Origin: a virus
Taxonomy: Duplodnaviria; Caudoviricetes
Direction: 5' to 3' (one strand)
DNA length: 64,000 bases
Virus record (IMG/VR): IMGVR_UViG_3300042870_001240
Part shown: piece by piece, positions 5,233-34,967 of the stretch
How positions within the stretch are numbered: the stretch's first letter is position 1
Layout: each line of letters opens with the position of its first letter
Program-made: the position numbers and the translations under genes
Notes under the pieces: model-generated
The model's database searches: none
What the model was told of the DNA's origin: nothing
Seen by the model: the letters and a program-made list of their open reading frames with translations, nothing else

Positions 5233-5843
5233 TAGTCTGTTTTTTTAGTTTTCTTTCTTGATGCTAATATTGTTGCCCACTTTGATTTAAATTTTTCATA
5301 ATAAGACTTTAGTTTTGTAACAAACTCAATAAACTTATCATCCATTTTCATCATTTCACCATCAATATAAATACCATTCTCTTCTCCAATTGAATATGTA
5401 AATTCAACATCAAAGTCGATAATTTTACCTGACCACTCAATATTATTTGGGTAGACGTTTAACTTATTAAAATCCACTAAGTCAGATACTTCAGTAACAA
5501 ATTCATCCATGGTTTCCTGAAAGGCGATTTTTTCATCAGTGGTTAATTCTAATTCAGTTTGGGTTTTTCCGTGTAACACCAAAATACCCCCTGAAATTCT
5601 ATATCCTTGTGATTTATCTTTCTCAGGAGTTTTTTCGTCATTATCATAATTAATAGCAGTTTCTATCTCATCACCAACATTAAATTTTTTAGTTATATCA
5701 CCAGATGTCATATTAACATCTTGTTCAGTTAAGATACCATACTGTTTCTTAATACTTATGGATTCTTTTAATGTCTCAGAGTTAGAAAGCATAGTTCTTG
5801 ACGCCTTCAATAAGTTTTTTATTTCATCATGTGAGTTGTTCAT
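5232..5843 (-). CDS. hypothetical protein, possible head-internal protein
   Basis: 203-aa ORF; LKES and LTEQ motifs in the N-terminal part. Confidence 0.6.
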   Translation of the reverse strand: MNNSHDEIKNLLKASRTMLSNSETLKESISIKKQYGILTEQDVNMTSGDITKKFNVGDEIETAINYDNDEKTPEKDKSQGYRISGGILVLHGKTQTELELTTDEKIAFQETMDEFVTEVSDLVDFNKLNVYPNNIEWSGKIIDFDVEFTYSIGEENGIYIDGEMMKMDDKFIEFVTKLKSYYEKFKSKWATILASRKKTKKTD

Positions 5844-6432
5844 TTTCTATTTTTTTTAAAAATTTTTCAAAATTAAAGGCCGGACTAACATCGGTAAAAT
5901 TAGAATCAAAATTACTTTTGGTTACCACTCCTTCAAACTTTTCAATACCATTTATTCTCGTATTATGTCCAATAACATTATCCTTTATCCCCAACTCATT
6001 AAACAACATTTTACATAAAATAACTGTAGAATCTATTTGTTTTTCTGTGTATGGTTCCCAAAAGAAATAATCTCTCCATTTTTTTTCGAACACATTACCT
6101 TTATAAATATCGCCAATCCAGTTAACGTAATAATCTTTTAGCGGTTCTTTTTGTAACCACCCTAAATTTTCCAATACAATAACCACTGAATTTTGATTTA
6201 CATTAGTTTCGGATAAGAATTTTGAGTGTTCGGTGTTTGAAAGTAGGTTTAATACCTTACCTTCTTTGGTAATAACGTAATTCGGAATCTTAGGGTTTTT
6301 CCCGTTATACCTAAATTTTAAAGATTGTAAATAATTTTCAACGTTTCTTGAGGTGTGAGAAAGAATAATTTGATGTTTCTTTTTCTGTTTACCTAACGGT
6401 TTAAAGTTCCCATATTTTATTATATCGACCAT
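5827..6432 (-). CDS. N-acetylmuramoyl-L-alanine amidase (Amidase_2) fold protein with a degenerate active site
   Basis: QIILSHTS, NYVITKEGKV, NSVVIVLENLGWL, YTEKQIDS and TDVSP follow the Amidase_2 layout. Confidence 0.7.
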   Translation of the reverse strand: MVDIIKYGNFKPLGKQKKKHQIILSHTSRNVENYLQSLKFRYNGKNPKIPNYVITKEGKVLNLLSNTEHSKFLSETNVNQNSVVIVLENLGWLQKEPLKDYYVNWIGDIYKGNVFEKKWRDYFFWEPYTEKQIDSTVILCKMLFNELGIKDNVIGHNTRINGIEKFEGVVTKSNFDSNFTDVSPAFNFEKFLKKIENEQLT

Positions 6433-7537: not shown

Positions 7538-8338
7538 TTACATGTAGTCGAATAACACCGAACTATCATTCCTTAATTTTCGTAGTGCCTTTTCTTTTAT
7601 CTGTCTGACCCTCTCTTTCGTAAGACTGAAATCTCCACCAATATCCTCTAAAGTTCTTGGTGACCCAGAGATACCAAAATAATCCTCAATAATAACCTTT
7701 TCTCGGTCATCTAACGAATTTAATAAACCAATTAACTTAGACTTTAACAAATCCTTACTGTTGAATACTTCGTCAGGCATATCCGCGTCTTTATTTTTAA
7801 TGATGTCGAATAATGTATCACCTTCTTCATTAATATCTATATCAAGGTAAATCATTGATGGTAGTCCTTGGAATTTGGCATCTAAATCCCCACCATTAGA
7901 TTCTATCGCTTTTTTGGCTCTGTGTAAGTCTTGTACTACATTAACAGGAAGTCGAATGGTTCTCGCGTTGTCATTCAGTGACTGTAAGATTGATTGTTTA
8001 ACCCACCAAACAGCATAAGAGATAAATCTTAAATCTTTATTCCAATCAAAGTTTTTAATCGCCTTCATTAACCCAAAATTCCCTTCAGCAATTAAATCAG
8101 GGAAATCCAACCCTTGGTTTTGATACTGTTTTGCGACCGTAATTACAAATCGTAAATTACCCTCAAGCAACTCTTTATGAACCTTCTCTTTTTGAGAGTC
8201 TGTCAATGTTCCTGACTTCATCATCCCCGCTAATTCTTTTTCTCGTTGTGGGGTCATAACTTTTATCCTACGGATGTCCTTAAGATAGTGCTGAATTTCT
8301 TCTTGATTAATTATAATTCCTGTGTTTTTGTCTTTCAT
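7538..8338 (-). CDS. sigma70-family (RpoD/SigA-like) RNA polymerase sigma factor, Bacteroidota type
   Basis: Region 1.2 (YLKDIRRIKVMTPQREKEL), region 2 (NLRFVITVAKQYQNQG...DLIAEGNFGLMKA...RFISYAVWWVKQSI), region 4 HTH (TLEDIGGDFSLTKERVRQIKEKALRKLR). Confidence 0.92.
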   Translation of the reverse strand: MKDKNTGIIINQEEIQHYLKDIRRIKVMTPQREKELAGMMKSGTLTDSQKEKVHKELLEGNLRFVITVAKQYQNQGLDFPDLIAEGNFGLMKAIKNFDWNKDLRFISYAVWWVKQSILQSLNDNARTIRLPVNVVQDLHRAKKAIESNGGDLDAKFQGLPSMIYLDIDINEEGDTLFDIIKNKDADMPDEVFNSKDLLKSKLIGLLNSLDDREKVIIEDYFGISGSPRTLEDIGGDFSLTKERVRQIKEKALRKLRNDSSVLFDYM

Positions 8339-17277: not shown

Positions 17278-17496
17278 ATGCCCACAGACATTACAATCAA
17301 CACAATTACGGGGTCGTCACCATTTGATGTTTATTTATGTGATAATCCGATTACAACATGTATATATATTGACACAATTTCGTCAACACCATATGTATTC
17401 GAAATTCCATCCATAATATCAAGTCAAAACGACTTTAATTTAAAAATTGTTGATAACAATAATTGTACTGTAATTGAAAACCTAAGTTTATTATGA
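17278..17496 (+). CDS. small Cys-containing beta protein, putative virion protein (paralog of 19485..19712)
   Basis: Likely start MPTDITI 14 nt after TATTTAT; ITGxxPxxVYxCD...C...KIxD...C pattern. Confidence 0.65.
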   Translation: MPTDITINTITGSSPFDVYLCDNPITTCIYIDTISSTPYVFEIPSIISSQNDFNLKIVDNNNCTVIENLSLL

Positions 17497-19475
17497 GTTG
17501 TTATTCCTATAGATTAACTAATGCAACATCTTCACCAATAACCCAAAATTTCACAGATTGTAATGGTAATCCGTGTAGCGTAACTGTTCTTAGTGGTGAT
17601 ACTCTTCCTAGTGGAAGTACCAAATACTATATAACCGCCGATTCAACAACTTTTGTCCCAAATCCAGCCTTTACCAATGTAACAACATACTCTGGAAATA
17701 CCCGAGCGTTCTCATTTAGTAGTTGTTGCACAAATGATGTTTTTTATATTTTAGGTGATACCACAACCCTTACATCAGGACAAACAGGTAATACTATTTG
17801 CGTAACCGAATTAACAAATGCTAACGATTGTACTATCAACAACACCTTAGTTAAAGGTTGTTACACATTTGTTAGTATTGAAAGTAACATTCTAAACGCT
17901 TTAGGTAACCAAGTTTATTTAGAATATTCATTGTTATTTAACAATTGTACAGCCTGTCTTACATCATGGGTAACAAAGGGAGTGGGTTGTGTTCCTTGTT
18001 GTAAATGTTACCAAATAGATGTAGTAGATGAGGCCGGTGATTACGTGTCTTATGTTGATTGTGACGGAAACCCATCTGGCCAAACTTTTTATGGGTTAAA
18101 TAACTATATTTGTTCCGTAGAATTACCATTAAAAACAAATCAATCAACTACTGTTACCGATTTAGGCCCTTGTTCAACTACAGAAGTTTGCGGCCCTTGT
18201 CCTGCTTATTGTATAACCAACACAGGTAACGAATATGACGATAACTACACCTTAGACGGTAACTATGATGGTTATTCCTATTGGATTAGTGGTTCAGGAC
18301 TTTGGTTTATCTACTATAACACAATAGATAAACAATGGTGTTTATCAGACAGTTTAGGTGGTGAACCTAAACTATCAGGTAAATCACCGTGTTTTTCAAT
18401 CTGTCCTGACTTATGTGAAGAAATTTTCTTTTCGGGGTCGTGTCCAACAACCACAACAACAACTGCCGCCTGTATAAATTTTGATTTTGATGCAATATTT
18501 GATTGTATGGCAGAACCAACCCCATCACCAACCCCAACACCATCTATCACCCCAACAATGACCGTAACACCAAGTTCAACAAATTATTGTTCAATGGTTG
18601 GTGTTGACGCAACAATCGATACTTATAGCCCGACACCTACTCCAACTCCAACAGTAACACCATCATCATCACCCATCATAATAAGACCTTGTAATGTATT
18701 GGGTGACGTTTCTTTTACCACACTTGATGGTCATATTGGTTGTCCAAGTAGTAAACAATTCCAAGACTGTGTTACAGGTATGATGTATTACACAACAGAA
18801 TTAGTACCAACTCCTTCTGGAGGTACTTTAACTGAGTTCATGATTTTTAAAGCATATGTTGACGATGTACTTAAGTGTATTTCATTTGTAGGTATAAACG
18901 ATAATATTATTGGTGTTAATACAATTGAATTAGTTGAAGGTCCAACAGGTTATTCTAACTTAGGTGAATGTGTTTCATGTGTTGTAATACCAAGTCCTAC
19001 ACCAACTCCAACCCCAACAATGACACCAACTCCAAGTGGAACACCTTGTTTTTGTTACGAATTAATTGCGAATGCACAAACAATATTTAATTATTTTGAT
19101 TGTAATGGGTTGGGAACAAGTGCAATAAGCCAAAAAACAATACCAACATATGTTTGTTCTTTAACATTACCAACAACAACTAGTTTAAACCCATATAGTA
19201 TTACAAAACTTGATATATGTTCTAATGATGTATGTCCACCATTAACATGTAATTGTTATACAGTATCAAATGGTGGTCCTATAAATGGACAAGGTTCAGA
19301 ATTCTCCTCAGTATATATGAGTTACATTGATTGCGATAACTTAGGACAGGTTATGGTAATTAATGATTACACAACAACACTACCATTCTGTTCATTAACA
19401 ACACCATTCATTAATAGTTCAACTAACATAATAACCGTAACATTACTTGGTAATTGTGCATCATGTTCATCATAA
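17493..19475 (+). CDS. Cys-rich, Pro/Thr-linker repeat protein; putative virion fibre/decoration protein
   Basis: Four CxCY...YxDCxG repeats and three PTPTPT linkers. Confidence 0.7.
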   Translation: MSCYSYRLTNATSSPITQNFTDCNGNPCSVTVLSGDTLPSGSTKYYITADSTTFVPNPAFTNVTTYSGNTRAFSFSSCCTNDVFYILGDTTTLTSGQTGNTICVTELTNANDCTINNTLVKGCYTFVSIESNILNALGNQVYLEYSLLFNNCTACLTSWVTKGVGCVPCCKCYQIDVVDEAGDYVSYVDCDGNPSGQTFYGLNNYICSVELPLKTNQSTTVTDLGPCSTTEVCGPCPAYCITNTGNEYDDNYTLDGNYDGYSYWISGSGLWFIYYNTIDKQWCLSDSLGGEPKLSGKSPCFSICPDLCEEIFFSGSCPTTTTTTAACINFDFDAIFDCMAEPTPSPTPTPSITPTMTVTPSSTNYCSMVGVDATIDTYSPTPTPTPTVTPSSSPIIIRPCNVLGDVSFTTLDGHIGCPSSKQFQDCVTGMMYYTTELVPTPSGGTLTEFMIFKAYVDDVLKCISFVGINDNIIGVNTIELVEGPTGYSNLGECVSCVVIPSPTPTPTPTMTPTPSGTPCFCYELIANAQTIFNYFDCNGLGTSAISQKTIPTYVCSLTLPTTTSLNPYSITKLDICSNDVCPPLTCNCYTVSNGGPINGQGSEFSSVYMSYIDCDNLGQVMVINDYTTTLPFCSLTTPFINSSTNIITVTLLGNCASCSS

Positions 19476-19484
19476 TATAAAGAA

Positions 19485-19712
19485 ATGACATCAATAGAAT
19501 TAACAGTCATAACAGGTAGTATAACAATTCCGTATTCGATTTACGCTTGTGATGTATACGGTAATAACTGTGTAATAATCGCAACTATTGTAACAACTGT
19601 TCCACCAACAAATACAATTTTTCTTCCACCTCAATTTAATACGGCACCAGCAGTTGGGATTAAAATAATAACTGATGATGGGTGTGAGCGATTTGAAATA
19701 TTTAATTGTTAA
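19485..19712 (+). CDS. small Cys-containing beta protein (paralog of 17278..17496)
   Basis: VITGSITIPYSIYACD...C...GIKIITDDGC. Confidence 0.65.
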   Translation: MTSIELTVITGSITIPYSIYACDVYGNNCVIIATIVTTVPPTNTIFLPPQFNTAPAVGIKIITDDGCERFEIFNC

Positions 19713-19716
19713 CCCT

Positions 19717-19747
19717 AAAAAAAAATATCGTCTAAAAAGACGATATT
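19717..19747 (-). terminator. terminator between the convergent cassette and ruvC
   Basis: 10-bp stem AATATCGTCT/AGACGATATT with a 4-nt loop and a U-tract on the minus strand. Confidence 0.7.
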
Positions 19748-19773
19748 CCAATTTATAATTCACTTAACCGATA

Positions 19774-20376
19774 TTACCTCCAAAGACCTTCTTGATTCAT
19801 AAAACCAAGAACACAACAATAAGCATCTGATTGGTCAAAATTCTCTTTCTTAAGAGTATTGTTTTTTGTATAACTCCAAACAATTTGTGGTTCTCTTTTG
19901 GCAACTAAATCCCAAATGATTTGTTTCTTATCAATGTCTTTTGGTAATCCTCCGAATAACACATGTTTACCTTTGTCATTCTCTCTAACTAATTCAGGGA
20001 AAGCAAATTTTCTTGAGTTGTATGTTGAGATATAGTCGGGCACAATACCTAATACATCATAGATTTGTTTGGTAACTAATGTATTGAATCTTAACAACGT
20101 TTGTATGGTGTACACATTATTACTATTCATTAAAGGTTCCTCAATGATAACCTTTGTAATACCCAATCCTTTATAATCTAAAAGTTTGGTTTTAAAGATT
20201 TCACTCTTAAGAAGTAATTCTTTTATTTTATTATCTTCCTTTGGCTTTGGTATAGGTGATATGTGTGTAAGCTCAAGTAACTCTTGGTTCCCAATGTCAA
20301 ATAACGCCCATCCAATCGTTCGGGTCGATACATCAAGTCCAAGAACCTTAGGACTTTCTTTAATAGATTTTTTCAT
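19774..20376 (-). CDS. ruvC: RuvC-like Holliday junction resolvase
   Basis: VLGLDVSTRTIGWA, VIIEEP and DQSDAY acidic catalytic set. Confidence 0.75.
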   Translation of the reverse strand: MKKSIKESPKVLGLDVSTRTIGWALFDIGNQELLELTHISPIPKPKEDNKIKELLLKSEIFKTKLLDYKGLGITKVIIEEPLMNSNNVYTIQTLLRFNTLVTKQIYDVLGIVPDYISTYNSRKFAFPELVRENDKGKHVLFGGLPKDIDKKQIIWDLVAKREPQIVWSYTKNNTLKKENFDQSDAYCCVLGFMNQEGLWR

Positions 20377-20379
20377 ATG

Positions 20380-22914
20380 TTAAATATCGAATTTAATCAA
20401 AAACTGCTGAATACCTTGTCTTAAAACGGGTGATTGCATTTTTGATATAATCATAAGATTTTTGTTCGAATCGTAAAGCCCTATTTCACTTACGAAAGTA
20501 GGTTTACCACTTGTCCATGTCGGATTCGATGTTGTTTGAAATTCCGCTTGACCTAAATTAATCTTATATTTCATTTCATAGATAGTTGCTTGGATGTCAG
20601 TTTCCAAAGAACCATAGAAATAATACTCATCACCAAAATTCAAAGAAGTTCCTGTATATCCTACAGGTGTTAATGGAATGTAAGTGTTTAAGTTATATGC
20701 CGGAGCATTGTCATACTCTTGTTGGGTGATAACAAATGTATTACCCGTCAACCCTTCTTGGGTGATATAACCATTAACCATTGTTGATGATAACTGACTT
20801 GTGAAATCAATAGCAACCCACTCAGAAGAGTTAGGTCTCTCATTACCAACAACTTTTTGACAAAGAATCTCAAATTTATTAGCCAAGAATCCTTGAGTTA
20901 CGTCACAGTATATCGGACATATTGATGTTGTTGTTGTAGTTACAGGATTATAAATTGTTGTTGTAGTCGTTGTAGGATTATAACTTGTTGTTGTAGTCGT
21001 TGTAGGATAATAAGATTGATTTAAACAACCAAATTCCCCACCGAATCTAACCGCAACATTTTGGGATGTAATCGTAGTACAATCAATATTAGGTCCTTGA
21101 ATAAACGAATAATAATTACAATGTAATGAATCGGTAAATAAATCTGTATTACTTAATCTATATGTGACATACAACGATTCTGTTAAACCTGTTAATATAC
21201 CCGTAACTGTTGAACTATCGTTACCACAAGTGTTTGGAGTAATTAATGATATCTTAGGTGATGGTATTGTCCAATTTCTATTTGATTTGTAGGACATTGC
21301 TGCAATGATTTCCTCATCATCAATAATAACCAACTTATCATCAGGGAATACTTTACCAACTCTATTAGGAATACCGTTAGCATTTGCGTTTGTGTCCCAT
21401 AGATGGTAATATCTCATACCAGGGTTATTCATATCAACATTCTTAGTTGACTGAAGGTATTGAACTTGGAAAAGATTTAAATCTTCAAATCCTGGAGGGT
21501 CAACCCAAAATGTTTGACCATTACAACAATCAGGATTTTTATGCCACATTAACCAAGGGATATGTACTTTAAAGTTTCTCGCCTCTCCCGTAGTATCAGC
21601 AGGATTTGATGGGTCAAATGGTTCCAATGCAAATTTTTCACCGTAGAATAAATCCACCGTTTGGTTTGTATAATGGATAATTCCAATCGCCTTTTGTTGT
21701 TCAGGTAACACATTAATTTTATCTCCAAAAGAGTTAAAATAATACACTGAACTACTATCTGTTTGTCCACTACTTGACGCATATCCAAAGTATTCTTTAG
21801 CCCCTAAGTAAGCGACAGAACCAAAATTAGTATAGTCTTTACTGATTGATGAGATTAGACCTGCAGGATTTTCTGACCATGGAATATTCATATTCCAAAC
21901 TTTAACATCAAACTCGTCAGTATAACAAACTGATTCAAAATTAATGACATTGTCATTCCAATGACGGCTAGGTGTAATACTATCGTATATCGTTGTCATG
22001 TTAGGAGGATAAACTATCACTCTACCATAACAAACGCTTGTTACATTTATAAAATTAGGTGTAGGTCTATCTAATGTTATCTCACCCAAACAAATGTTAA
22101 CAATTTTATATGTTAACATTGAGTAACAACTACTCATATCAACCAAACAATCAGGTGGTGATGGTAGTGGACATGCTCTACTTGTTGACGGTGTTAAACA
22201 AGGAGTTTTAGACGGTGTAGGAGTAGGTGTTGGTGAATCACAAGGGAACGAATTAGATGATGTTGGCGTAGGTGTTGGTGTTGAACCACTTTGAGGACTT
22301 ACCGAAGGCGTCACTGAGATTGTTGGTGTTGGTGTCGGTGTCGGGAGATTTAAACAAATACAATTATCCATACCTTTACCATCATAATAAATTGTGATAA
22401 TATCTCCAATAGCAGGCTCTCTAACTGAATCAGGATTACTTGGATTACTAATAAGAGTAATTTTATTGGTTCCAACTAATGAGTTCATCTGAACAACGTA
22501 GTTAGCATTGATAGCGTAAAAATTGTTAGTTAACGCACTCCAACTAATTGTCTCAGCACTTGTGTTACCAGTAAAGAACCCTCTCATTACCGCTCTATTA
22601 AATACAGGACTTACTTGAGAATCCATAAAAGGAATTCCATAAGTATTACCCGCTCTCCCATCAACATAATAAGGATATTTTACATTACTTTTATTTGATT
22701 CTGGAATCCCACTTGAATTTTGAGCATTGAAGCTCGGCTCTAATATTACAGTATCAAATTGATTATAACTTGTTGGTAAGGTATTGTATGAGACCTCACT
22801 ATCTCCAACTTGGAAATAGGAGATGTTAAAATTTCCTTGTGACAATTTTTCTCGTCCAATATCGGTTAATCTTGTATTAATTAACCCTGCAGTATTTTTT
22901 ATTATAAATCCCAT
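20380..22914 (-). CDS. virion structural protein (tail/baseplate-associated) with PT- and T-rich linkers
   Basis: C-terminal SEIGLYD...ISKM tail-collar-like motif; TATTTAT 5 nt upstream; structural gene context. Confidence 0.6.
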   Translation of the reverse strand: MGFIIKNTAGLINTRLTDIGREKLSQGNFNISYFQVGDSEVSYNTLPTSYNQFDTVILEPSFNAQNSSGIPESNKSNVKYPYYVDGRAGNTYGIPFMDSQVSPVFNRAVMRGFFTGNTSAETISWSALTNNFYAINANYVVQMNSLVGTNKITLISNPSNPDSVREPAIGDIITIYYDGKGMDNCICLNLPTPTPTPTISVTPSVSPQSGSTPTPTPTSSNSFPCDSPTPTPTPSKTPCLTPSTSRACPLPSPPDCLVDMSSCYSMLTYKIVNICLGEITLDRPTPNFINVTSVCYGRVIVYPPNMTTIYDSITPSRHWNDNVINFESVCYTDEFDVKVWNMNIPWSENPAGLISSISKDYTNFGSVAYLGAKEYFGYASSSGQTDSSSVYYFNSFGDKINVLPEQQKAIGIIHYTNQTVDLFYGEKFALEPFDPSNPADTTGEARNFKVHIPWLMWHKNPDCCNGQTFWVDPPGFEDLNLFQVQYLQSTKNVDMNNPGMRYYHLWDTNANANGIPNRVGKVFPDDKLVIIDDEEIIAAMSYKSNRNWTIPSPKISLITPNTCGNDSSTVTGILTGLTESLYVTYRLSNTDLFTDSLHCNYYSFIQGPNIDCTTITSQNVAVRFGGEFGCLNQSYYPTTTTTTSYNPTTTTTTIYNPVTTTTTSICPIYCDVTQGFLANKFEILCQKVVGNERPNSSEWVAIDFTSQLSSTMVNGYITQEGLTGNTFVITQQEYDNAPAYNLNTYIPLTPVGYTGTSLNFGDEYYFYGSLETDIQATIYEMKYKINLGQAEFQTTSNPTWTSGKPTFVSEIGLYDSNKNLMIISKMQSPVLRQGIQQFLIKFDI
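20925..21014. repeat. 30-nt tandem repeat x3 encoding YxP(T)5-6x
   Basis: ttgttgttgtagtcgttgtaggattataac-type units. Confidence 0.8.
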
Positions 22915-22940
22915 TGACTATAAATATGTATATTTCTTTT

Positions 22941-24356
22941 TTATGTAGTAATTACGGTACAACAATTACAACCTGATAATTTTAAATTCGTTATTGAATA
23001 TTTTTCATCGCTCGTCCCAATATAACAATTAATTGATTCATTTTTTGTTACAGAAGTTATTGTAGTTAAACTTAAAATATCCGCGTTAGTGATAATGACT
23101 TGAGTCCATTGTTCTGAATTTGAATAAACATAAACATCATTTGATTGACACCCAGGTATTATACTTTTTGTTTCTGACTCATCAAACCCCACAATTGGTT
23201 CAAGAGAATCTCCGTTTATAACTAAATCACTATCACTTTGAAATGTTGCCGATTCTGAATTTGGTGATGATTTTGAAACATTTAAATGAGTAATATTAAA
23301 CGTTAAAGACACTCCGTCAGGTAGTGGTGGGGTTATTTTAATAGTCGTCTCATATTGTTTTGTAACACTATTATTTGATATTTCAACTGTTTTTGATGTT
23401 GTATTTAAACTAACATTATATGTTGTAGGTTTTGATGGTGAGTTAAGAATAATACTTGAACTAGTAATAATTCCACTATCATCAACAACAAGAACATTAT
23501 ACGTCCCAGAACATAAATTATTAAAAATTGGCATATTTTTATATGTCAATCCTGCATCTATAGAATACGTATACGGTGGTGTACCCCCATTTGCAGTTAT
23601 TGTAATCCCTCCATCACATCCACAAATAGTTTGATTTTTGGTCACATTCATAGTTAACGGAGTAATTCCTTCTCCAAGTTTAAGTTTACCTTCAACAGGT
23701 AATGATTGACAAAGACCTTCATAAACAATAACGCTACCCGTATTACCAATTAGGAACCAACTACCGTAAATCGGTGGATATGTCGGATTTAAATTCGATA
23801 TCACATATAGAGTTGGTGTTGCAGCGGACACTAACCATTGTGATTGAGATGTATCCCAAATTATTGCTTGTTGACTGTCGTCAGAAATCCATGCCGGTTT
23901 TCCATCATAAATTCCATTTGGGTTAAAATGTGTTTGTGTTTCCACATAAACCCCTTGTACTAACATGTTTGTAACCATACATAATTCGTATTCATTAGGA
24001 TATGGTGAAGTTGTACTAGTACTTGTTGTAGTTGTAGTTGGGGTTACTCCTGTCAAAATACATGTCGTATTTGCCGTAAAATCTCCGTAATAATCTACAA
24101 CCGTTGCTCCGTATGACCCCGCACTTAAATTATAAATAATCGGACCAATTCCCCCATTCAACCAAATAATAGTATATGGAGGAGTCCCACCTGTTATTGT
24201 TAACGAAGCTATTCCGTCAGTCGATTCGGGTAATGTTGGGTGTGATACGTTACATTCAACACCCATTTGAAATAATGTGATAACATTACAATCGTTAACA
24301 CCTGTTGTTAGACAAGATGTTTCACCAGTCATTTTATATGGGGACTTATTACTCAT
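22941..24356 (-). CDS. SprB-repeat virion protein (fibre/adhesin-like)
   Basis: Two DGx(A/I)xxTxxGGTPPYT...NLx(A/S)G(S/T)Y...VVD repeats and a T-rich linker. Confidence 0.7.
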   Translation of the reverse strand: MSNKSPYKMTGETSCLTTGVNDCNVITLFQMGVECNVSHPTLPESTDGIASLTITGGTPPYTIIWLNGGIGPIIYNLSAGSYGATVVDYYGDFTANTTCILTGVTPTTTTTSTSTTSPYPNEYELCMVTNMLVQGVYVETQTHFNPNGIYDGKPAWISDDSQQAIIWDTSQSQWLVSAATPTLYVISNLNPTYPPIYGSWFLIGNTGSVIVYEGLCQSLPVEGKLKLGEGITPLTMNVTKNQTICGCDGGITITANGGTPPYTYSIDAGLTYKNMPIFNNLCSGTYNVLVVDDSGIITSSSIILNSPSKPTTYNVSLNTTSKTVEISNNSVTKQYETTIKITPPLPDGVSLTFNITHLNVSKSSPNSESATFQSDSDLVINGDSLEPIVGFDESETKSIIPGCQSNDVYVYSNSEQWTQVIITNADILSLTTITSVTKNESINCYIGTSDEKYSITNLKLSGCNCCTVITT

Positions 24357-24371
24357 TTACGATAAATACAT

Positions 24372-25352
24372 TTACAATTGATTTTTTACAATCCTTTTCA
24401 TTATCTCAACGTATTTTATTGTTGAACTATTAGTATCAACAAAATCAAAATAATTCATATCTTCTTTTAATTTATTTAAAGGATTGACGTTGATGAACTC
24501 TCCCTTATAGAACTTGGAGCCCTTTAAATCGTGAGTTACTCCCGCCATATGTAATATGGGTTGTTTCTCATAAATATTAACATTATCAGTTGCCCAAGAA
24601 AACCCCAATTCATTTGTTATTTTTGTTTCAATCCCAAAGTACCAAAGATTCCACAATAAAGACCACATCTCAGCAGTCCAAAACTGTATCTCTCCCGGAC
24701 TTATTGGGAATCTTTTTTGGTAACTCATCATTTGGTCATATAATGGAGTGCAATCTTCATAAATTTTATTCCATATAAACGAATCAGTGTTTTTTATAAT
24801 ATATTGACCTCCACCTGAGTTTTCTTGATTACATTTAACACAATCAACCGATACTCCAACAACATCCACCATCTCTTGAATCAATTGTCCCTTATCAGAG
24901 GTCGGGTGATGTTTCTCGTATCGAATACAACAGTCATTAATGTAGTTGTAACCAATGTATCCGACAGTGTCGGATAAATAGGTTATATCGTCAGATAACA
25001 AACTTTCGAAGTCAGGTAGTTCCCTAAAAATAATGTCCGCATCATGTAAGAAAAAACATTTTCCAAATTCAGGAAATTGTTCTAACCATTTATAAATTAA
25101 AAATGGTTTAATGTTCGGGATGTAATGTTTTTGATGTCGAGCATCTAAATAATGGTGAACATTAATTCCCATAGATTTAAGTTCTAAAGATTCTTTTGTT
25201 GGTTCTGTATTACCATTAACCATTGCAAAAATTACATGGATTTGACTAGGGTCGATACCCATTTCTATAAAATTGTATGAATATACTTTGACTTGCCAAT
25301 GAAAATATGGGACATCAGGTTGTGCGGTTACAAATACTAAATCTTGAGTCAT
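24372..25352 (-). CDS. GT-A fold glycosyltransferase resembling GT96/GT95 peptidyl-Ser/Hyp O-glycosyltransferases
   Basis: YFHWQ, YIPNIKP..IYKWL, HDADIIF (DxD), SGGG, WTAEMW and ILHMAG motifs; likely start MTQDL at 25352. Confidence 0.65.
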   Translation of the reverse strand: MTQDLVFVTAQPDVPYFHWQVKVYSYNFIEMGIDPSQIHVIFAMVNGNTEPTKESLELKSMGINVHHYLDARHQKHYIPNIKPFLIYKWLEQFPEFGKCFFLHDADIIFRELPDFESLLSDDITYLSDTVGYIGYNYINDCCIRYEKHHPTSDKGQLIQEMVDVVGVSVDCVKCNQENSGGGQYIIKNTDSFIWNKIYEDCTPLYDQMMSYQKRFPISPGEIQFWTAEMWSLLWNLWYFGIETKITNELGFSWATDNVNIYEKQPILHMAGVTHDLKGSKFYKGEFINVNPLNKLKEDMNYFDFVDTNSSTIKYVEIMKRIVKNQL

Positions 25353-25423
25353 AATAGAGTTTGTTTTAAATATATTAAACATTAAATTTTAATAAATGGT
25401 GTGTTGGTATATATTTATTAGAT

Positions 25424-25597
25424 ATGAAACTACTTAAAACAATTTCTAAATTAGTTGTTGAATCTCAAAGAGCTTTTGATGAAGCAGCTGAAAAAGGGGT
25501 TAGCGAAAAAGAATTAGATAGATTAGAAAAAAACTATAAAGAGTCCCTTAAACTAATGAGACTTTATGGTAATTTAAGTAAAAAACAAATCAAATAA
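25424..25597 (+). CDS. 57-aa helical protein not in the ORF track
   Basis: MKLLKTISKLVVESQ...; TATTTAT 5 nt upstream; hairpin after the stop. Confidence 0.65.
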   Translation: MKLLKTISKLVVESQRAFDEAAEKGVSEKELDRLEKNYKESLKLMRLYGNLSKKQIK

Positions 25598-25612
25598 CCC
25601 TTTGGGGGTTAT
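25594..25612. terminator. short hairpin between convergent genes
   Basis: ATAACCC-tttgg-GGGTTAT. Confidence 0.4.
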
Positions 25613-25636
25613 ATCACTCACCTTTCATCCCAACCA

Positions 25637-26119
25637 CTAAAGATGTCCGGGGGTTTCGGTGAATTTATATAAATAATCTATTATCCTTTTCTTTATTCCT
25701 TCCTCCTTTATACCCTTTTTTGAATCCTCAATCCAAACAAAGTTTGATAGATGTTTTCCCATATCAAGGTCGTCTATTGCAACCCAAGATGTAATATTCC
25801 CTGTAGAATCTAACCACTTTTTTATCTCCTTAGCTCTTAAATAAGCAATATCGTCTAAATACTTAATATTAGTTATTGGCGTATATCCGATTGGAGATTT
25901 TATTATTCCCTGTTTAATATAAAAGGATTTCATTTTAGGTAAATCTGCCCACGTTTTCCAATCAGAAGAGATAACTATTTCACAATCCACCTCTCTTATT
26001 ATTTCATTAAGAATACTAACCGCCCCTTGGTCAAAATCTAAGAGTATTGGTTTACCATCTGGCCAAATCGCTTTCCCTAAGTATATTACTCCTTGATGGT
26101 CAAGAAAGAGAATTTTCAT
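25637..26119 (-). CDS. HAD-superfamily protein (HAD_SAK_2-like)
   Basis: ILFLDHQGV (motif I, DxQ), IVISSDWK, RAKEIKKWL and WVAIDDLD. Confidence 0.75.
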   Translation of the reverse strand: MKILFLDHQGVIYLGKAIWPDGKPILLDFDQGAVSILNEIIREVDCEIVISSDWKTWADLPKMKSFYIKQGIIKSPIGYTPITNIKYLDDIAYLRAKEIKKWLDSTGNITSWVAIDDLDMGKHLSNFVWIEDSKKGIKEEGIKKRIIDYLYKFTETPGHL

Positions 26120-26126
26120 GAGTAAG

Positions 26127-29100
26127 TTACAACTTTTTCTTTATAAATTCCACAGTCCATTGTGTTAACTCACCGACAGTAGGAAGAGTATAGGCCAATT
26201 CTTTTGGTGTTTTTACTAAGAATCCTTCTGAGTTAGTTGCTAGTGGTTGTTCACCTAATCTTAAACCTTCATAGTATTCAACAGGAACACCTTTAAATTC
26301 TTCTATTGAAGTAATAGACCTTTCGTCTTTAATAAACTTCATATCCGCGATAGGGTAAAGATTATTTAATCTTCGTGAAGTAAGAATACCTTCTGCAAAT
26401 ATATTAAGATGACGGTTTGTTACTACGTTATAAATTTCTTCAACCTCGGTAGATTCTTCTTTACCTACTATTGTTACTATGTTTCCTTTATCATTAAATG
26501 TACGAGTTCCTATAGGGCTATGTTCGTTAGGTATGGCGTAAGTAAATTCTCCCTTATCTAAGTTAAAGATACGGTGACCTCCGTCATGATTTAAATGTCC
26601 GGATATTCCAAGTTTTGAACCATCACTAAAGAGAATATTTACGTATTGAGTAAGTACTGGAGTCATTATCCAAAGAGGGGTCGCAGAATCAAATCTTCCT
26701 TCATCAAAGTTCCACACTAAAAGAGAATCTTCATAAGATATATCTTCTATGTTCTTTTTAAGTCCGCTTGCTAGAGTTATTTTGGTTCCTTTAATAAAAC
26801 AAGGCATAGTAAAACTAACTTGAGCACCATACGATGTACCAACCGCATTAGTAGCATATATTCTTACATATACGGGAATATGTGGGTTCGGTATGATATA
26901 GGTGTGTATGAATTGTCCTAATGCGTCAGGATTACCTGAACCATCAGATACTATATTATTAGCAATAGTAGGATTTGGAGAAGTGCCCCAAACAATACCT
27001 CTTTGGGTTATTGTTGACCCTCCATTACTCACTATCGTTCCTGTTATTTGAGCACTACCATTACCTAAATTTGCATATCCATCAGTAGTAACTGTTGGTA
27101 ATGTTGCTAGAGTTGGTGTTGGTGTTGGTGTTGGAGTTAGAGTTGGAGTTGGAGTTGGAGTTGGAGTTGGTAACCCACAACTTTGACAATCAATATCGTA
27201 AGATATTTTTAAGTCAATTTTAACATCCACATCAATTAACGATACATTTGAATTACAGTTAGTGTCGATAGTTATTATGTTGTTTAAATAATCTAAAAGA
27301 ACTTCTCCAACACCTTCATAAGATAATAAAATTTCTTTAACCACATCGTAAAACAAACTATCTAAAGGATAGTCATTTAATGTTGTTCCCGTATAAAAAG
27401 GTTGAGTCTGAGTATTACCACTAACCGTCACTTCGGCATAAAATATTGTTTGTTGTAATAAACAATTAGTATCACCGCTAGTTAAATCGTAAAATCCTTC
27501 AGTTAACATTTGTTGAGGACCTTTTCTAACGGTTTGTCCCGTATTCATAAAATCTTCATCACAAATATTGAATGTTTGGTAAGTAGATATCACGTTGAAT
27601 CCATTAATTATAATGTCTCTTGTTTGAACACACCCATTATCATCAATAACGGTTAGAGTATATGTTCCTGCGGATAAAGAATTAATTGTTAATCCTGTTT
27701 GTCCATTAACATTTGAACTCCAATTTAAAATAAATGGAGGTTCTCCACTTGTAATAAAAGTATCGATAGTTCCATTAGTCCCATCCGTAGAGTCTCCTCC
27801 AACTAACACAAAATCAACTGTACTTGAGTTGTTTATCGTGAATGGTAGTATTTGCGCACAACCATTATTATCGGTAACTGTCGCAGTATAATTACCTGAA
27901 GGTAAATCAGTAAATGTGTAAGATAAATCACTTATAATTGTAAATTGTCCATCAATTTCATAATTATAAGGTCCCGTTCCTCCTGAAGTAATATTCAAAG
28001 TAACCGCACCATCACTTAAATTACAAGTTGTACCAGTGGTCTCAACCGATAACGTAAATAACTCAACATTATTAATGGTATAGGCATGTGTAAAAACGCA
28101 TGGCCCCATATCAGATATTGTTAGAGTATAATTACCCGAAGACAAACCATTAAATGTCCATGAAGTAAAACTACCTGTTATTACTGTTGAATTACCTAAC
28201 GAATCTGTTAAAGTATATGTATATGGTGCAGAACCTCCAAAAATGGTTACTTGTATTTTACCTGAAGTATTGTTACACGCCGAATTAGTTATATTGACCG
28301 AGGTCACCGAAAGTCCTCCTGGAGTTAATAATGATGTGGATGATGTAAAATTACATAACCCCGCATCAGTTACTTGTACACTAAACACACCTGAAGATAA
28401 TCCCGTAAAAGTATATGTTGTTGCAAAACTAACCGCAACTGTCCCATTAGAACCTGAATAATAATATGGAGCAGTTCCACCTGTTATTGTTATTGTCACT
28501 TCTCCATCGGCAGAAAAACAAGATGGACTTTCAACCGTGAAAGCACCCAATCCGACATTAGGAACTGTTGTTACAGTTACTCCACTACTTTGCACACATC
28601 CCGAACCATCGGTTACTGTGACAATATATGGTCCCGCGGTTAATCCTGTTATTGATTGAGTTGTTTGGCCACCTGGTGACCATAGATAAGTATAAGGTGG
28701 CGTTCCTGTTAATCCTGTTATATGTATAGAACCTGAATTAACCGCACAACCCGCATCATTTACGGTGTATAAACCAATTTCAAGTGGTAATGAATCTTTA
28801 ATAATACATGTCTCAGATTTACCTGTGCATCCACCACCGTCATTTGCCACCACATAATAAGTTCCTGCCGATAAACTTCCAAAACCATATGAAGAACTTA
28901 AAGTAATACCTGAAGTAATATACCCATCAGACATTTCATATAAATAAAAACTACCTGTTCCATATAAGTTAGATGTTGTTGCGGTAACAGAACCATTGTT
29001 TAATCCACATAAAGTATTTTGTTGACTCACAATACTAACACACGTTCCTGTTGAAATATAAACATTGACGGGTAAGACAGTATTTGCCGGTGAACAACTA

Positions 29101-29312
29101 TCAATAATCTTAAACGTATATGTTCCTCCTGATAACCCTGTTTCAGAGTAATTAACTATTCCAACCCCTAATGATGTAGTCCCCGTATAAGGGCTAATCC
29201 ACTGTATTGTATAGTCAGGAGCACTTCCCAAGATATCAAGACTAAACGCTCCTGATAAATCATTTAAACAGTCACCTGTTATGCTTATAGTATATGATAA
29301 AAGACACGACAT
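26127..29312 (-). CDS. SprB-repeat fibre-like virion protein with PT linker, FN3-like domain and C-terminal Hint domain
   Basis: Seven SprB-like repeats; (PT)n; GGSTITQRGIVWGTSPNPT...YVRIYATNAVGTSYG; P/CFIKGTKITLASG...IYNVVT..HLNIFAEGILTS. Confidence 0.8.
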   Translation of the reverse strand: MSCLLSYTISITGDCLNDLSGAFSLDILGSAPDYTIQWISPYTGTTSLGVGIVNYSETGLSGGTYTFKIIDSCSPANTVLPVNVYISTGTCVSIVSQQNTLCGLNNGSVTATTSNLYGTGSFYLYEMSDGYITSGITLSSSYGFGSLSAGTYYVVANDGGGCTGKSETCIIKDSLPLEIGLYTVNDAGCAVNSGSIHITGLTGTPPYTYLWSPGGQTTQSITGLTAGPYIVTVTDGSGCVQSSGVTVTTVPNVGLGAFTVESPSCFSADGEVTITITGGTAPYYYSGSNGTVAVSFATTYTFTGLSSGVFSVQVTDAGLCNFTSSTSLLTPGGLSVTSVNITNSACNNTSGKIQVTIFGGSAPYTYTLTDSLGNSTVITGSFTSWTFNGLSSGNYTLTISDMGPCVFTHAYTINNVELFTLSVETTGTTCNLSDGAVTLNITSGGTGPYNYEIDGQFTIISDLSYTFTDLPSGNYTATVTDNNGCAQILPFTINNSSTVDFVLVGGDSTDGTNGTIDTFITSGEPPFILNWSSNVNGQTGLTINSLSAGTYTLTVIDDNGCVQTRDIIINGFNVISTYQTFNICDEDFMNTGQTVRKGPQQMLTEGFYDLTSGDTNCLLQQTIFYAEVTVSGNTQTQPFYTGTTLNDYPLDSLFYDVVKEILLSYEGVGEVLLDYLNNIITIDTNCNSNVSLIDVDVKIDLKISYDIDCQSCGLPTPTPTPTPTLTPTPTPTPTLATLPTVTTDGYANLGNGSAQITGTIVSNGGSTITQRGIVWGTSPNPTIANNIVSDGSGNPDALGQFIHTYIIPNPHIPVYVRIYATNAVGTSYGAQVSFTMPCFIKGTKITLASGLKKNIEDISYEDSLLVWNFDEGRFDSATPLWIMTPVLTQYVNILFSDGSKLGISGHLNHDGGHRIFNLDKGEFTYAIPNEHSPIGTRTFNDKGNIVTIVGKEESTEVEEIYNVVTNRHLNIFAEGILTSRRLNNLYPIADMKFIKDERSITSIEEFKGVPVEYYEGLRLGEQPLATNSEGFLVKTPKELAYTLPTVGELTQWTVEFIKKKL
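27109..27170. repeat. hexamer microsatellite x10 encoding (PT)n
   Basis: agagtt (ggtgtt)3 ggagtt agagtt (ggagtt)4. Confidence 0.85.
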
Positions 29313-33240: not shown

Positions 33241-33762
33241 TTATATAATTATTTTATTTGACTTCTTTAAATTTTCTTCCGCCCATAATGGTCTTAAGTT
33301 TAAATAGTGGTTTAGTCCTTCAATTTCTTCTTTATTTTTACCAACACTAATTGGTATTATATGGTCAATATGCCATTCACCGTAATTATCCCAAGACATA
33401 TCATCAACAAACTGATTTTCAAGATGTTTCTTTAAATCAGTTATGGGTAAGCCAATACATTCTAATGTATTTTTTGTTTTACCCTTAATAATATTACATA
33501 TTCTTGCTCTTAAATTTCCAATTAATCTATAATTTATATCGTTAAACCGTCTTTCCTTCTGATAATCAGTATTATATGTCGGATTTTTTTTGCGATAATC
33601 TACTTGGTATTTATAAATCTTTTCTTTATTTTTTAAATCATATTCCTTTTTTAATATCGATTGGCATACTTTACAATACGAACGTTTACCCTGTTTACCT
33701 AATTTTTGATTATTAAACTCGGGTAAAGATTTTTCAATATTACATTTAGTACAAACTTTCAT
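33241..33762 (-). mobile_element. free-standing HNH (homing) endonuclease gene
   Basis: N-terminal CTKC...CKVC Zn finger; MSWDNYGEWHIDHIIP...LNHYLNLRPLWAEENLKKSN HNH motif. Confidence 0.8.
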
Positions 33763-33779
33763 AACAATAAATATCCTTT

Positions 33780-34967
33780 TTATATTTTTATCACATTAAA
33801 AAATTTATATCCGTATTTTTCGAGGTCACCAACATTATCAACTTCACCTAATCTTTCAAGTCTTTCTAACACTGAGTTTTTACCTCTTTCAATGAAAACG
33901 TTGGATTGTATTTCTGCTTCATCAATTACATTTAATAATACTTCATTTTTTGTTATTGCTGAACAAACCATCATGTCGGGTGTCATTCCTGAAGAATAAA
34001 CCGTAAACACAGTGGTTCCATCATTATAATCATAGTAGTTAATATCATTAATTGTATAGGCGGTGTATAGGTTATCTACCGATGGTCCAAAAAATGTCCC
34101 AACATTTCCTGAAGTTCCTGTTACCTGAACACCTATCTTATATTTTCCCGCAAACCTTGTTGGGTCGTACTTACTACCATATTGTTCAAGGTCACTTATC
34201 GTTGAATTGGTATATCCAGTAATTAAGAATGGGACAGTTGTGTAATTGTAACTTGATTGGTCATACACATCACAATTAGAATCACCCGTAAATAAATAAT
34301 CATACATCAATGAAGTCCCCGACCAACTACCTCCCGCGGGAGTAAAATAAGCCGTCCCATTAGGGTTAGTTGCAATAACATTTGTAAACGGTACCGTAAC
34401 ATCTTTTTTAATGACGTTATATCCCCAAGGACTCATTCCCGACATTGTAATAGTATATTCACCACTTGAAGCATAAGTATGGTTATAATAGTTGGGTGCC
34501 GTAATAGGAACCAATTGTGGTGGGGAACCATCCCCCCAATCAATCTGATAAGTTGCAAAGGCCAAATACTTTTTAAACTCGGTGTCTGAAGTATTATAAA
34601 AATAATATGTGTTCGGAGCATAGGTTGAGGCGGAAAATAAGAAATTAGTCATCGTATCTTTTTGTAACACCATTCCATCAAATACCGAATAATACCCAAT
34701 ATCGATTGTGGTTTCACTAAGAAATATTGGGATAGTCAAACCCGTCAATAATGAAGTTCCTCCCGTACCACCTGTTACTATTTGAGTCATTGCAGAATAT
34801 ACTCGAGTATAACCTGTGTATTGACTAGTCGTAGTCGTTGTTGTCACATCACAACAAGGGTCACCACTTATATTAAATTGTGATGTGCCAGCATCATAAG
34901 GTGCAAGAAATAAATCACCACTAATAACTTCGGGGGAAATTCGTATACTATAATATCTATCGTCCAT
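33780..34967 (-). CDS. virion structural protein with a PKD-like domain
   Basis: YQIDWGDGS...NHTYASSGEYTITMSG; TTTTTT linker. Confidence 0.6.
   Translation of the reverse strand: MDDRYYSIRISPEVISGDLFLAPYDAGTSQFNISGDPCCDVTTTTTTSQYTGYTRVYSAMTQIVTGGTGGTSLLTGLTIPIFLSETTIDIGYYSVFDGMVLQKDTMTNFLFSASTYAPNTYYFYNTSDTEFKKYLAFATYQIDWGDGSPPQLVPITAPNYYNHTYASSGEYTITMSGMSPWGYNVIKKDVTVPFTNVIATNPNGTAYFTPAGGSWSGTSLMYDYLFTGDSNCDVYDQSSYNYTTVPFLITGYTNSTISDLEQYGSKYDPTRFAGKYKIGVQVTGTSGNVGTFFGPSVDNLYTAYTINDINYYDYNDGTTVFTVYSSGMTPDMMVCSAITKNEVLLNVIDEAEIQSNVFIERGKNSVLERLERLGEVDNVGDLEKYGYKFFNVIKI

Follow-up and report, generated by a model that had tools for sequence, protein, structure and literature searches.

When a phage carries a gene for a glycosyltransferase (GT) among genes for threonine- and proline-rich proteins, the question arises which molecule the enzyme modifies. 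This question is raised by a stretch of DNA of 64,000 nucleotides from a tailed phage (Duplodnaviria; Caudoviricetes; IMG/VR virus record IMGVR_UViG_3300042870_001240), here called the window, in which a gene at 24372..25382 on the minus strand encodes a protein of 336 amino acids (aa) that matches the protein family PHROG 4417 and is modelled with the GT-A fold. It had been proposed from the sequence (the original prediction) that this phage O-glycosylates Thr/Ser linkers of its fibres and baseplate. The proposal is upheld here for poly-Thr runs, for which both their co-occurrence with the GT and the fold of the enzyme speak, and less directly for (PT)n linkers, for which the evidence comes from one lineage. 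We consider it likely that a soluble, metal-dependent GT, probably of the retaining type, works in the cytoplasm on virion proteins of the phage itself and glycosylates the threonine (perhaps also serine) of their poly-Thr runs and probably also of their (PT)n linkers.

The seven sequence motifs on which the original prediction was built are all present in the translation of 24372..25382 and keep the order given there: YFHWQ (residues 26-30), YIPNIKP (87-93), IYKWL (96-100), HDADII (113-118), SGGG (189-192), WTAEMW (235-240) and ILHMAG (276-281). The ORF (open reading frame) had earlier been given an end at 25352, which is the second in-frame ATG (M11); either start is possible, because homologues align from about residue 13-15. 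In an alignment of 87 sequences with 27-82% identity to the window protein, the residues W29, Y87, D114, D116, G191, W235, M239, H278 and G281 are invariant and, judged by this conservation, the motifs are not due to chance. The DxD motif D114-A-D116 (25035..25043, minus strand) is predicted to bind the metal and the nucleotide-sugar, by analogy with GT-A and GT8 enzymes, and His278 of the ILHMAG motif (24549..24551, minus strand) is the predicted third metal ligand; this role is assigned from the Asp-x-Asp plus His metal site that we take to be typical of the GT8 enzymes LgtC and glycogenin. No signal peptide, transmembrane segment or hydrophobic N- or C-terminal segment is visible in the sequence and the enzyme should therefore act in the cytoplasm.

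No Pfam family was matched by the GT at E ≤ 1, including HPAT (PF23452) and Glyco_transf_8 (PF01501). The match to PHROG 4417, a family annotated as "unknown function", has an E value of 3e-69 and aligns residues 17-331 with profile positions 3-291 of 293. One search of a database clustered at 90% identity gave 1,453 homologues at E ≤ 0.001, the family comprises 812 clusters at 50% identity, and a tblastn search against 50,697 phage records returned 77 records of cultured phages, all without functional annotation. The AlphaFold2 (AF2) model calculated from the 87-sequence alignment (predicted local distance difference test (pLDDT) 96.6; predicted template modelling score (pTM) 0.93) consists of a single Rossmann-like GT-A domain, with which 213 PDB chains were matched at E ≤ 0.001, GT-A enzymes being ranked best; 99 chains reach Z ≥ 8 and GT8-like enzymes lead among them.

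The top Foldseek match among the models of Swiss-Prot proteins was the Arabidopsis peptidyl-serine alpha-galactosyltransferase SGT1 of family GT96 (E 5.8e-10; template modelling (TM) score 0.60), in which residues 394-699 of the 802-aa plant protein are covered at 15% identity. The next matches, likewise predicted structures, were the GT95 hydroxyproline (Hyp) O-arabinosyltransferases RDN1, NOD3 and HPAT1-3 with TM scores of 0.55-0.62; GT8, GT24, lipopolysaccharide (LPS) and small-molecule enzymes scored lower, at about 0.40-0.46. Among the clusters of the AlphaFold database, three members of the enzyme's own family were followed in the list by several entries named HPAT-like domain proteins. 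A fold search against GT95 and GT96 had been put forward as a check of the likeness to these plant families, and the likeness holds, since the best predicted-structure matches are GT96 and GT95 enzymes, above LPS and small-molecule enzymes. The best solved chains are retaining GT8-like enzymes at Z of about 14, namely Skp1 Gat1 (14.2) and glycogenin (14.2), with LgtC and WbbM tied; further solved matches are UGGT (Z 13.7) and GlyE (Z 12.9). Based on these models, the GT is read as a distinct family in the GT8/GT95/GT96-like group of retaining GT-A enzymes, outside GT95 and GT96 proper. The fold alone cannot fix the acceptor, because LgtC and WbbM tie with protein-directed GT8 enzymes. In neighbouring clusters of a protein atlas, PF23452 was found in 10% and 58% of the members, which is a lead only. 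Single-sequence and profile searches of the PDB with the GT gave only spurious matches, of which those to TALE repeats stem from a common 'NSGG' stretch, and these were discarded.

Distant relatives of the GT are fused to PF11397, O-FucT, GT6 and GT7C domains, and cellular relatives have epimerase, sulfotransferase and other GT genes as neighbours. These fusions and neighbours confirm a glycosylation role for the superfamily without pointing to an acceptor. Giant multi-domain proteins occur among the cellular relatives (L406, from the bacterial assembly GCA_039208045.1, 26..4135; L407, 689..3748). One such giant joins O-FucT, the PF11397 N-acetylglucosamine (GlcNAc) transferase, F5/8 type C and the GT-family domain, and the giants adjoin GT_PLOD, Nucleotid_trans, sulfotransferase and epimerase genes. 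These families are best known from eukaryotic protein glycosylation.

The acceptor can be approached through the position of the gene in cultured phages. In ten of the ten cultured-phage records sampled, the GT homologue lies inside the morphogenesis module and nearby ORFs have runs of at least six Thr. In Enterococcus phiFL1A, Clostridium phiCTP1, Staphylococcus SA2, Arcanobacterium TPWB06 and Lactococcus 1706 it directly follows the gene of the major tail protein and precedes those of the tail chaperones and the tape measure. In Lacticaseibacillus iLp84, Enterococcus 9183 and Lactococcus bIL285 the major capsid protein or a decoration protein comes immediately before it, and in Lactobacillus LpeD and Chryseobacterium MA9V-3 a Thr-repeat protein does. 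The poly-Thr runs in these ten records usually form the end of the tail-tube or capsid protein, of which they make up the last 10-30 residues. The tail proteins of the carriers are mostly not related by BLAST, and hence it was concluded that the poly-Thr tails arose repeatedly and convergently.

Two peculiarities of these records may be mentioned. In Staphylococcus SA2 (L005, 5685..5948) and Arcanobacterium TPWB06 (L088, 9720..9926), the tail-protein gene is overlapped at its 3' end by a short ORF that consists nearly entirely of Thr runs and is read in a different frame; through a frameshift, this ORF could extend the poly-Thr tail of some subunits. In LpeD (L086, 8989..9991 and 18206..19690), two Thr-repeat ORFs directly precede the GT, and one of them is annotated 'glycoprotein', from a spurious match to herpesvirus gp2.

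The association was also examined in a blind scan, for which IMG/VR pieces were picked solely by the DNA pattern (ACN)8, with (GAN)8 as the control pattern. The GT was found in seven of the 118 (ACN)8 pieces and in none of the 117 (GAN)8 pieces (Fisher p 0.014), and in all seven a poly-Thr ORF lies on the same strand, directly upstream of the GT gene or overlapping it at the end. Three families of tail proteins were then compared for the presence of the poly-Thr tail, or tag, and of the GT. Among tail proteins of the bIL285 type, 14 loci have both, 66 have neither and none is discordant. The loci L337 and L338, with 93.5% nucleotide identity in the flanking DNA downstream, differ solely in the GT gene and in whether the capsid protein and the tail protein end in poly-Thr. 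Among tail proteins of the phiFL1A type, 12 loci have both and 15 neither, and on the tree of the tail core the tag and the GT switch at the same four places, with three independent supported pairs that are all concordant. The iLp84 type gave 31 loci with both, 25 with neither and 8 discordant ones, these being mosaic; in three discordant loci that have the GT, the tail protein has no long Thr run and poly-Thr is found on the capsid or decoration protein. When the three families were pooled, a poly-Thr ORF was present near the tail gene in 59/59 loci with the GT, compared with 6/104 loci without it. The independent events number roughly four within families, to which at least six convergent tail-protein families are added. 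Co-occurrence of the GT with such tracts across phages, another check named at the outset, is thus strongly positive over independent lineages and within families, and the signal that crosses lineages is that of poly-Thr (or Thr/Ser) runs.

It is at this point that a host acceptor has to be considered. The GT might modify a polymer of the host envelope (teichoic acid, cell-wall polysaccharide, LPS or capsule) so that superinfection is blocked or receptors are altered, with the tracts being unrelated linkers or polymer binders. Soluble enzymes of the GT-A and GT-B types by which phages modify teichoic acids or O-antigens are well known. LgtC, which acts on lipo-oligosaccharide, and WbbM, which acts on O-antigen, rank with the best solved matches, and epimerase, sulfotransferase and other GT genes accompany the cellular relatives in clusters of the glycan type. 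However, an envelope acceptor fails to predict that the presence of the GT tracks poly-Thr on capsid and tail proteins in near-identical phages, and the gene sits within late head and tail operons in temperate and virulent phages alike. We therefore regard this explanation as improbable.

Glycosylation of the phage's own poly-Thr and Thr/Pro tracts has to be set against several observations that weigh on the other side. Five prophage loci of Lacticaseibacillus without the GT (L437, L438, L439, L443 and L444), which are the other five discordant loci of the iLp84 type, retain a poly-Thr tail, and one further locus without the GT also has a Thr run; hence, the tag can exist unmodified. The five orphan-tag loci have one identical tail-protein C-terminal sequence together with a head module without the GT and a capsid without the tail, and from these sequences they look like recombinants between GT-bearing and GT-less modules. 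The raw p value of 6e-38 for the pooled comparison overstates independence, because the contigs are related, and only three well-supported independent contrasts (four on the best tree) are available, all in one family, with a sign-test p of 0.25. A link between (PT)n and the GT was seen only within the lineage of large aquatic phages to which the window belongs. With respect to the enzyme, the sequence link to GT95 is marginal, in that Pfam HPAT (PF23452) was reached by only two of the 87 relatives, at E 0.09, and among solved structures LgtC and WbbM tie with the protein-directed enzymes. Lastly, the location of the tract-bearing proteins of the window in the virion is one that we infer.

If poly-Thr tracts are the acceptor, the following course can be proposed, in which we infer the retaining chemistry, the acceptor, the donor and the benefit to the phage, which might be the protease resistance, rigidity or host interaction named in the original prediction. 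During late gene expression, the soluble GT would use a UDP-sugar of the host and a divalent metal held by D114, D116 and H278, and would attach sugars to one Thr hydroxyl after the next in the disordered tracts of freshly synthesised virion proteins. The likely acceptors in the window phage would be the SprB-repeat and the fibre- or baseplate-like proteins encoded around the GT. An alpha linkage is probable, as enzymes of this fold group are retaining. Hyp is an unlikely acceptor, given that the window showed no prolyl hydroxylase. In most of the small carrier phages, the stretches covered (6-10 kb on each side) have no other annotated GT, and the simplest product would therefore be an array of single sugars, which would form a mucin-like sugar brush on exposed tails and linkers. 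The enzyme and the tag would constitute a portable two-part module, in which the tag takes the form of a poly-Thr tail on the major capsid or tail-tube proteins of small phages and of internal linkers in the aquatic lineage with genomes of about 300 kb.

Single sugars added by one enzyme are not the only conceivable product. The GT could extend a glycan after a host enzyme or another phage enzyme has added the first sugar to the Thr-rich tracts or to some other acceptor. GlyE and Gat1, which are among the top matches, extend protein-linked glycans, relatives of the GT are often fused to more GT domains, and Bacteroidota hosts own a general O-glycosylation system. The myophage LpeD may build a longer glycan, because a GT2 gene lies 8 kb downstream of its GT. 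This explanation is also unlikely, given that small siphophages have the module with no other GT annotated within 6-10 kb on each side, that the general system of Bacteroidota operates beyond the cytoplasm, in a space that phage proteins do not enter, and that the enzymes nearest in predicted structure, those of GT95 and GT96, start glycans. Glycosylation of phage DNA (hypermodified bases) against restriction, which is the commonest annotated role of phage glycosyltransferases (PMC12619734) and could be thought of for a window that also has replication and repair genes, was rejected as extremely improbable, since homologues lie in the morphogenesis module of temperate siphophages of 35-40 kb with no hydroxymethylase annotated in the stretches that were covered there, the window ORFs scanned include no genes for base modification, the T4 alpha- and beta-glucosyltransferases are not among the fold matches, and the link with poly-Thr is left unexplained.

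With glycosylation of virion tracts as the preferred reading, the setting of the window can be described. The window has a GC content of about 32%, and its baseplate-wedge genes (42716, 44561 and 60411) are interspersed with genes for RNR, DnaB, UvsX, SSB, SbcCD and primase. It is taken to be part of a jumbo phage of the myovirus type, because complete relatives have 291-318 kb. The host is probably a member of the Bacteroidota, judged by the SprB repeats and by the nearest cultured match, a Chryseobacterium phage. For the lineage, 80 IMG/VR relatives of the locus with 55-88% identity were sampled over 10 kb around the GT, and 117 viral-contig pieces (1.03 Mb) served as the control. Runs of at least five Thr occur within 10 kb in 74/80 relatives compared with 5/117 control pieces, and (PT)3 or longer in 76/80 compared with 0/117; Thr/PT tracts of such a kind are rare in viral DNA. 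The gene order conserved in the lineage is the large SprB/PT protein, the GT, the SprB poly-Thr protein, an 844-aa PT/poly-Thr protein and RuvC. A homologue of the SprB-repeat protein of 471 aa lies just 3' of the GT in 76/80 relatives and one of the SprB-repeat protein of 1061 aa is present in 73/80. The tracts of the lineage cluster from -4 to +8 kb around the GT, and in two complete relatives (291-318 kb) about 1/4 to 3/7 of the poly-Thr sites fall within about 6 kb of it.

A script run over the 45 window ORFs of at least 100 aa found tracts of at least six P/T/S residues in the ORFs 17493, 20380, 22941, 26127, 33780, 37561 and 53201, and no such tract in the other 38. PT or T tracts had been attributed to at least six nearby structural proteins; all six that were named have them, as does 37561, and the part that is presumed is their structural status. 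They are called structural because of SprB, PKD and Ig_J domains, a match to a PHROG 'virion structural protein' and the baseplate-wedge genes nearby. Most of the tracts are encoded by mixed synonymous codons, the exception being a (CCA ACT)5 DNA repeat in 26127.

The GT gene lies, as had been described, between two SprB-repeat genes. The first of these (22941..24356, minus strand; Pfam SprB, E 6e-10) is directly downstream of the GT and encodes a candidate acceptor of 471 aa with the Thr/Ser tract TPTTTTTSTSTTSP at residues 105-118 (24003..24044, minus strand). The second (26127..29312, minus strand; Pfam SprB, E 8.5e-27, and Ig_J) is upstream of the GT and encodes a candidate acceptor of 1061 aa that matches PHROG 26672, 'virion structural protein' (E 7.6e-7). 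Its (PT)n linker PTPTPTPTPT-L-TPTPTPTPT (residues 715-734; 27111..27170, minus strand) has the (CCA ACT)5 repeat as its first half. The C-terminus of the same protein (residues about 838-1061; 26127..26800, minus strand) opens with the Hint/intein-like sequence 'CFIKGTKITLASG', for which the match to Hom_end_hint is weak (E 0.016); with a Hint-type end, the protein could process itself autoproteolytically.

The conserved 844-aa protein (20380..22914, minus strand) is another candidate acceptor and is found in 73/80 relatives at about +3 kb from the GT. It has a (PT)n-rich linker region at residues 191-235 (22210..22344, minus strand) and three poly-Thr runs, PTTTTTTS, PTTTTTT and TTTTTS, within residues 637-664 (20923..21006, minus strand). 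Both regions are conserved in an alignment of 28 sequences, the consensus of which retains three six-Thr runs. The AF2 model made from these 28 sequences has a mean pLDDT of 46.7, and the tract regions lie below 50, as does most of the protein.

A fourth candidate acceptor, a Cys-rich protein of 660 aa (17493..19475), is encoded on the plus strand, opposite to the GT, and is one of the few plus-strand ORFs of at least 100 aa in the window; it is present in 64/80 relatives. It has 7% Cys, arranged in several small Cys-rich modules that are spaced by (PT)n linkers (18516..18674 and 18990..19019, plus strand), and also a poly-Thr run (18444..18464, plus strand); it gave no Pfam and no PHROG match. 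Outside the immediate surroundings of the GT, a PKD-like protein of 395 aa (33780..34967, minus strand) has the run TTTTTTS at residues 42-48 (34824..34844, minus strand), and a protein of 2406 aa (53201..60421, minus strand), the gene of which adjoins a baseplate-wedge gene, has the linker PTPTPTPSPTP at residues 2257-2267 (53621..53653, minus strand).

Other neighbours of the GT were considered as well. The phosphatase-like HAD_SAK_2 gene directly upstream (25637..26119, minus strand; Pfam E 4e-20) was discarded as a partner of the GT, as it is absent from 80/80 relatives. The endonuclease VII/HNH-like gene at 33241..33762 (minus strand) is likewise absent from 80/80 related loci, and both genes look like recent insertions outside the GT system. 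The HAD gene and the GT are separated by 254 nt, in which a plus-strand ORF of about 58 aa (about 25417..25593) is visible by eye; it is Lys/Glu-rich and helical-looking. A Pfam search with ten further window ORFs revealed no sugar-nucleotide gene and no other GT. The window also encodes a phage sigma-70 family factor with regions 1.2, 2 and 4 (7538..8338, minus strand), an N-acetylmuramoyl-L-alanine amidase (5827..6432, minus strand; Pfam Amidase_2, E 1.6e-9) and a protein of 495 aa (1904..3391, minus strand) with weak dockerin- or EF-hand-like calcium-binding motifs.

The closest known system by function is the virion glycosylation of mycobacteriophages. In Che8, Corndog and Myrna, a phage GT is reported to modify the C-termini of the phage's own capsid and tail-tube subunits in the cytoplasm (Freeman et al. 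2023, Cell Host Microbe, as cited in PMC12619734). The Gram-positive phage relatives of the GT resemble this system in that poly-Thr C-terminal tails on capsid or tail-tube proteins are encoded beside the GT, and in both cases the GT gene is linked to virion genes with Ser/Thr-rich candidate acceptor segments. Unlike in the mycobacteriophages, the tag is a near-pure poly-Thr run, and the tracts of the window are internal fibre-like linkers rather than C-terminal tails. None of the 77 phage records found by tblastn among the 50,697 searched is from a Mycobacterium phage; the carriers of the module are phages of Bacillota, Actinomycetota (Arcanobacterium) and Bacteroidota as well as aquatic phages of about 300 kb.

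The plant and algal enzymes SGT1/SERGT1 (GT96) and HPAT/RDN/PLENTY (GT95, PF23452) are the closest predicted structures and have the GT-A fold and the DxD motif in common with the phage protein. GT95 and GT96 enzymes act on hydroxyls in repetitive, extended Pro/Ser-rich protein segments, which resemble the Thr/Pro tracts of the window. They differ in that the identity is only about 15% and the GT has no significant match to Pfam HPAT, in that the plant enzymes are anchored in the Golgi membrane whereas the phage GT is predicted to be soluble in the bacterial cytoplasm, and in that its likely acceptor is Thr and not Ser or Hyp. The best solved matches, glycogenin, Skp1 Gat1 (6mw8) and GlyE (5gvv), align over 210-233 residues with Z of 12.9-14.2; these enzymes are cytoplasmic and protein-modifying and have a metal site composed of DxD and His. 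In the pneumococcal pathway for serine-rich-repeat proteins, GlyE adds sugar to an adhesin with Ser-rich repeats, and this target is a close functional analogue of the poly-Thr tag. In contrast to the GT8 enzymes, the GT has no match to Pfam Glyco_transf_8, the identity is about 11-12% and about 100 of its residues lie outside the shared core; GlyE and Gat1 also extend an existing sugar instead of starting on the peptide.

Virus-encoded GT-A enzymes are represented among the structural matches by A64R of chlorovirus PBCV-1 (2p6w, Z 10.9) and R699 of mimivirus (9dyt, Z 10.5). With these enzymes, the viruses glycosylate their own surface proteins and do not depend on the secretory pathway of the host; the glycans of PBCV-1 are N-linked. 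A64R and R699 differ from the present case in that they belong to eukaryotic giant viruses and resemble the GT less closely in structure than the GT8, GT95 and GT96 matches do. A model for the tracts of the SprB proteins is offered by the Pro-Thr linkers of bacterial cellulases and by mucin-type domains, in which O-glycosylation stiffens the linkers and shields them from proteases. These too are extended linkers of (PT)n or Thr-rich sequence that connect globular domains, but they are glycosylated by membrane-associated systems of the host during secretion and not by a dedicated soluble phage enzyme.

The route had been put forward as one for which no description in phages was known, and the literature searched bears this out: nothing on it was found, nor any description of the GT family (PHROG 4417) or of poly-Thr tags. 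Phage-encoded virion glycosylation has so far, to our knowledge, been shown only in mycobacteriophages, where it shields the particles from antibodies. A broader proposition, on which we are evenly divided, is that a poly-Thr or Thr-Pro tract and a soluble GT95/GT96-like GT form a single-enzyme tag and transferase module that would provide a widespread, mobile, mucin-like coating of the capsids, tails and fibres of tailed phages and that would move by recombination between phages of Bacillota, Actinomycetota and Bacteroidota as well as the aquatic phages of about 300 kb. The family would then be a prokaryotic and viral sister of the plant families that glycosylate extensins, so that the use of this fold for O-glycosylating peptides at repetitive tracts of hydroxy amino acids would be older than its use in plant cell walls.

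As cultured carriers exist, the question is directly testable. If glycosylation of virion tracts is confirmed, PHROG 4417 would gain a function, there would be an explanation for the odd poly-Thr tails that many capsid and tail proteins have, and the plant families GT95 and GT96, which are absent as solved structures among the PDB matches, would gain a relative in bacterial viruses. A short poly-Thr tail together with one soluble enzyme would also be a simple, genetically encoded glycosylation tag for engineering. Self-glycosylation would be common among phages, with carriers that include dairy and gut phages of Lactococcus, Lactobacillus and Enterococcus, staphylococcal phages that are candidates for therapy and the jumbo phages abundant in aquatic habitats, and it would have a bearing on phage stability, immune recognition and adherence to mucus.

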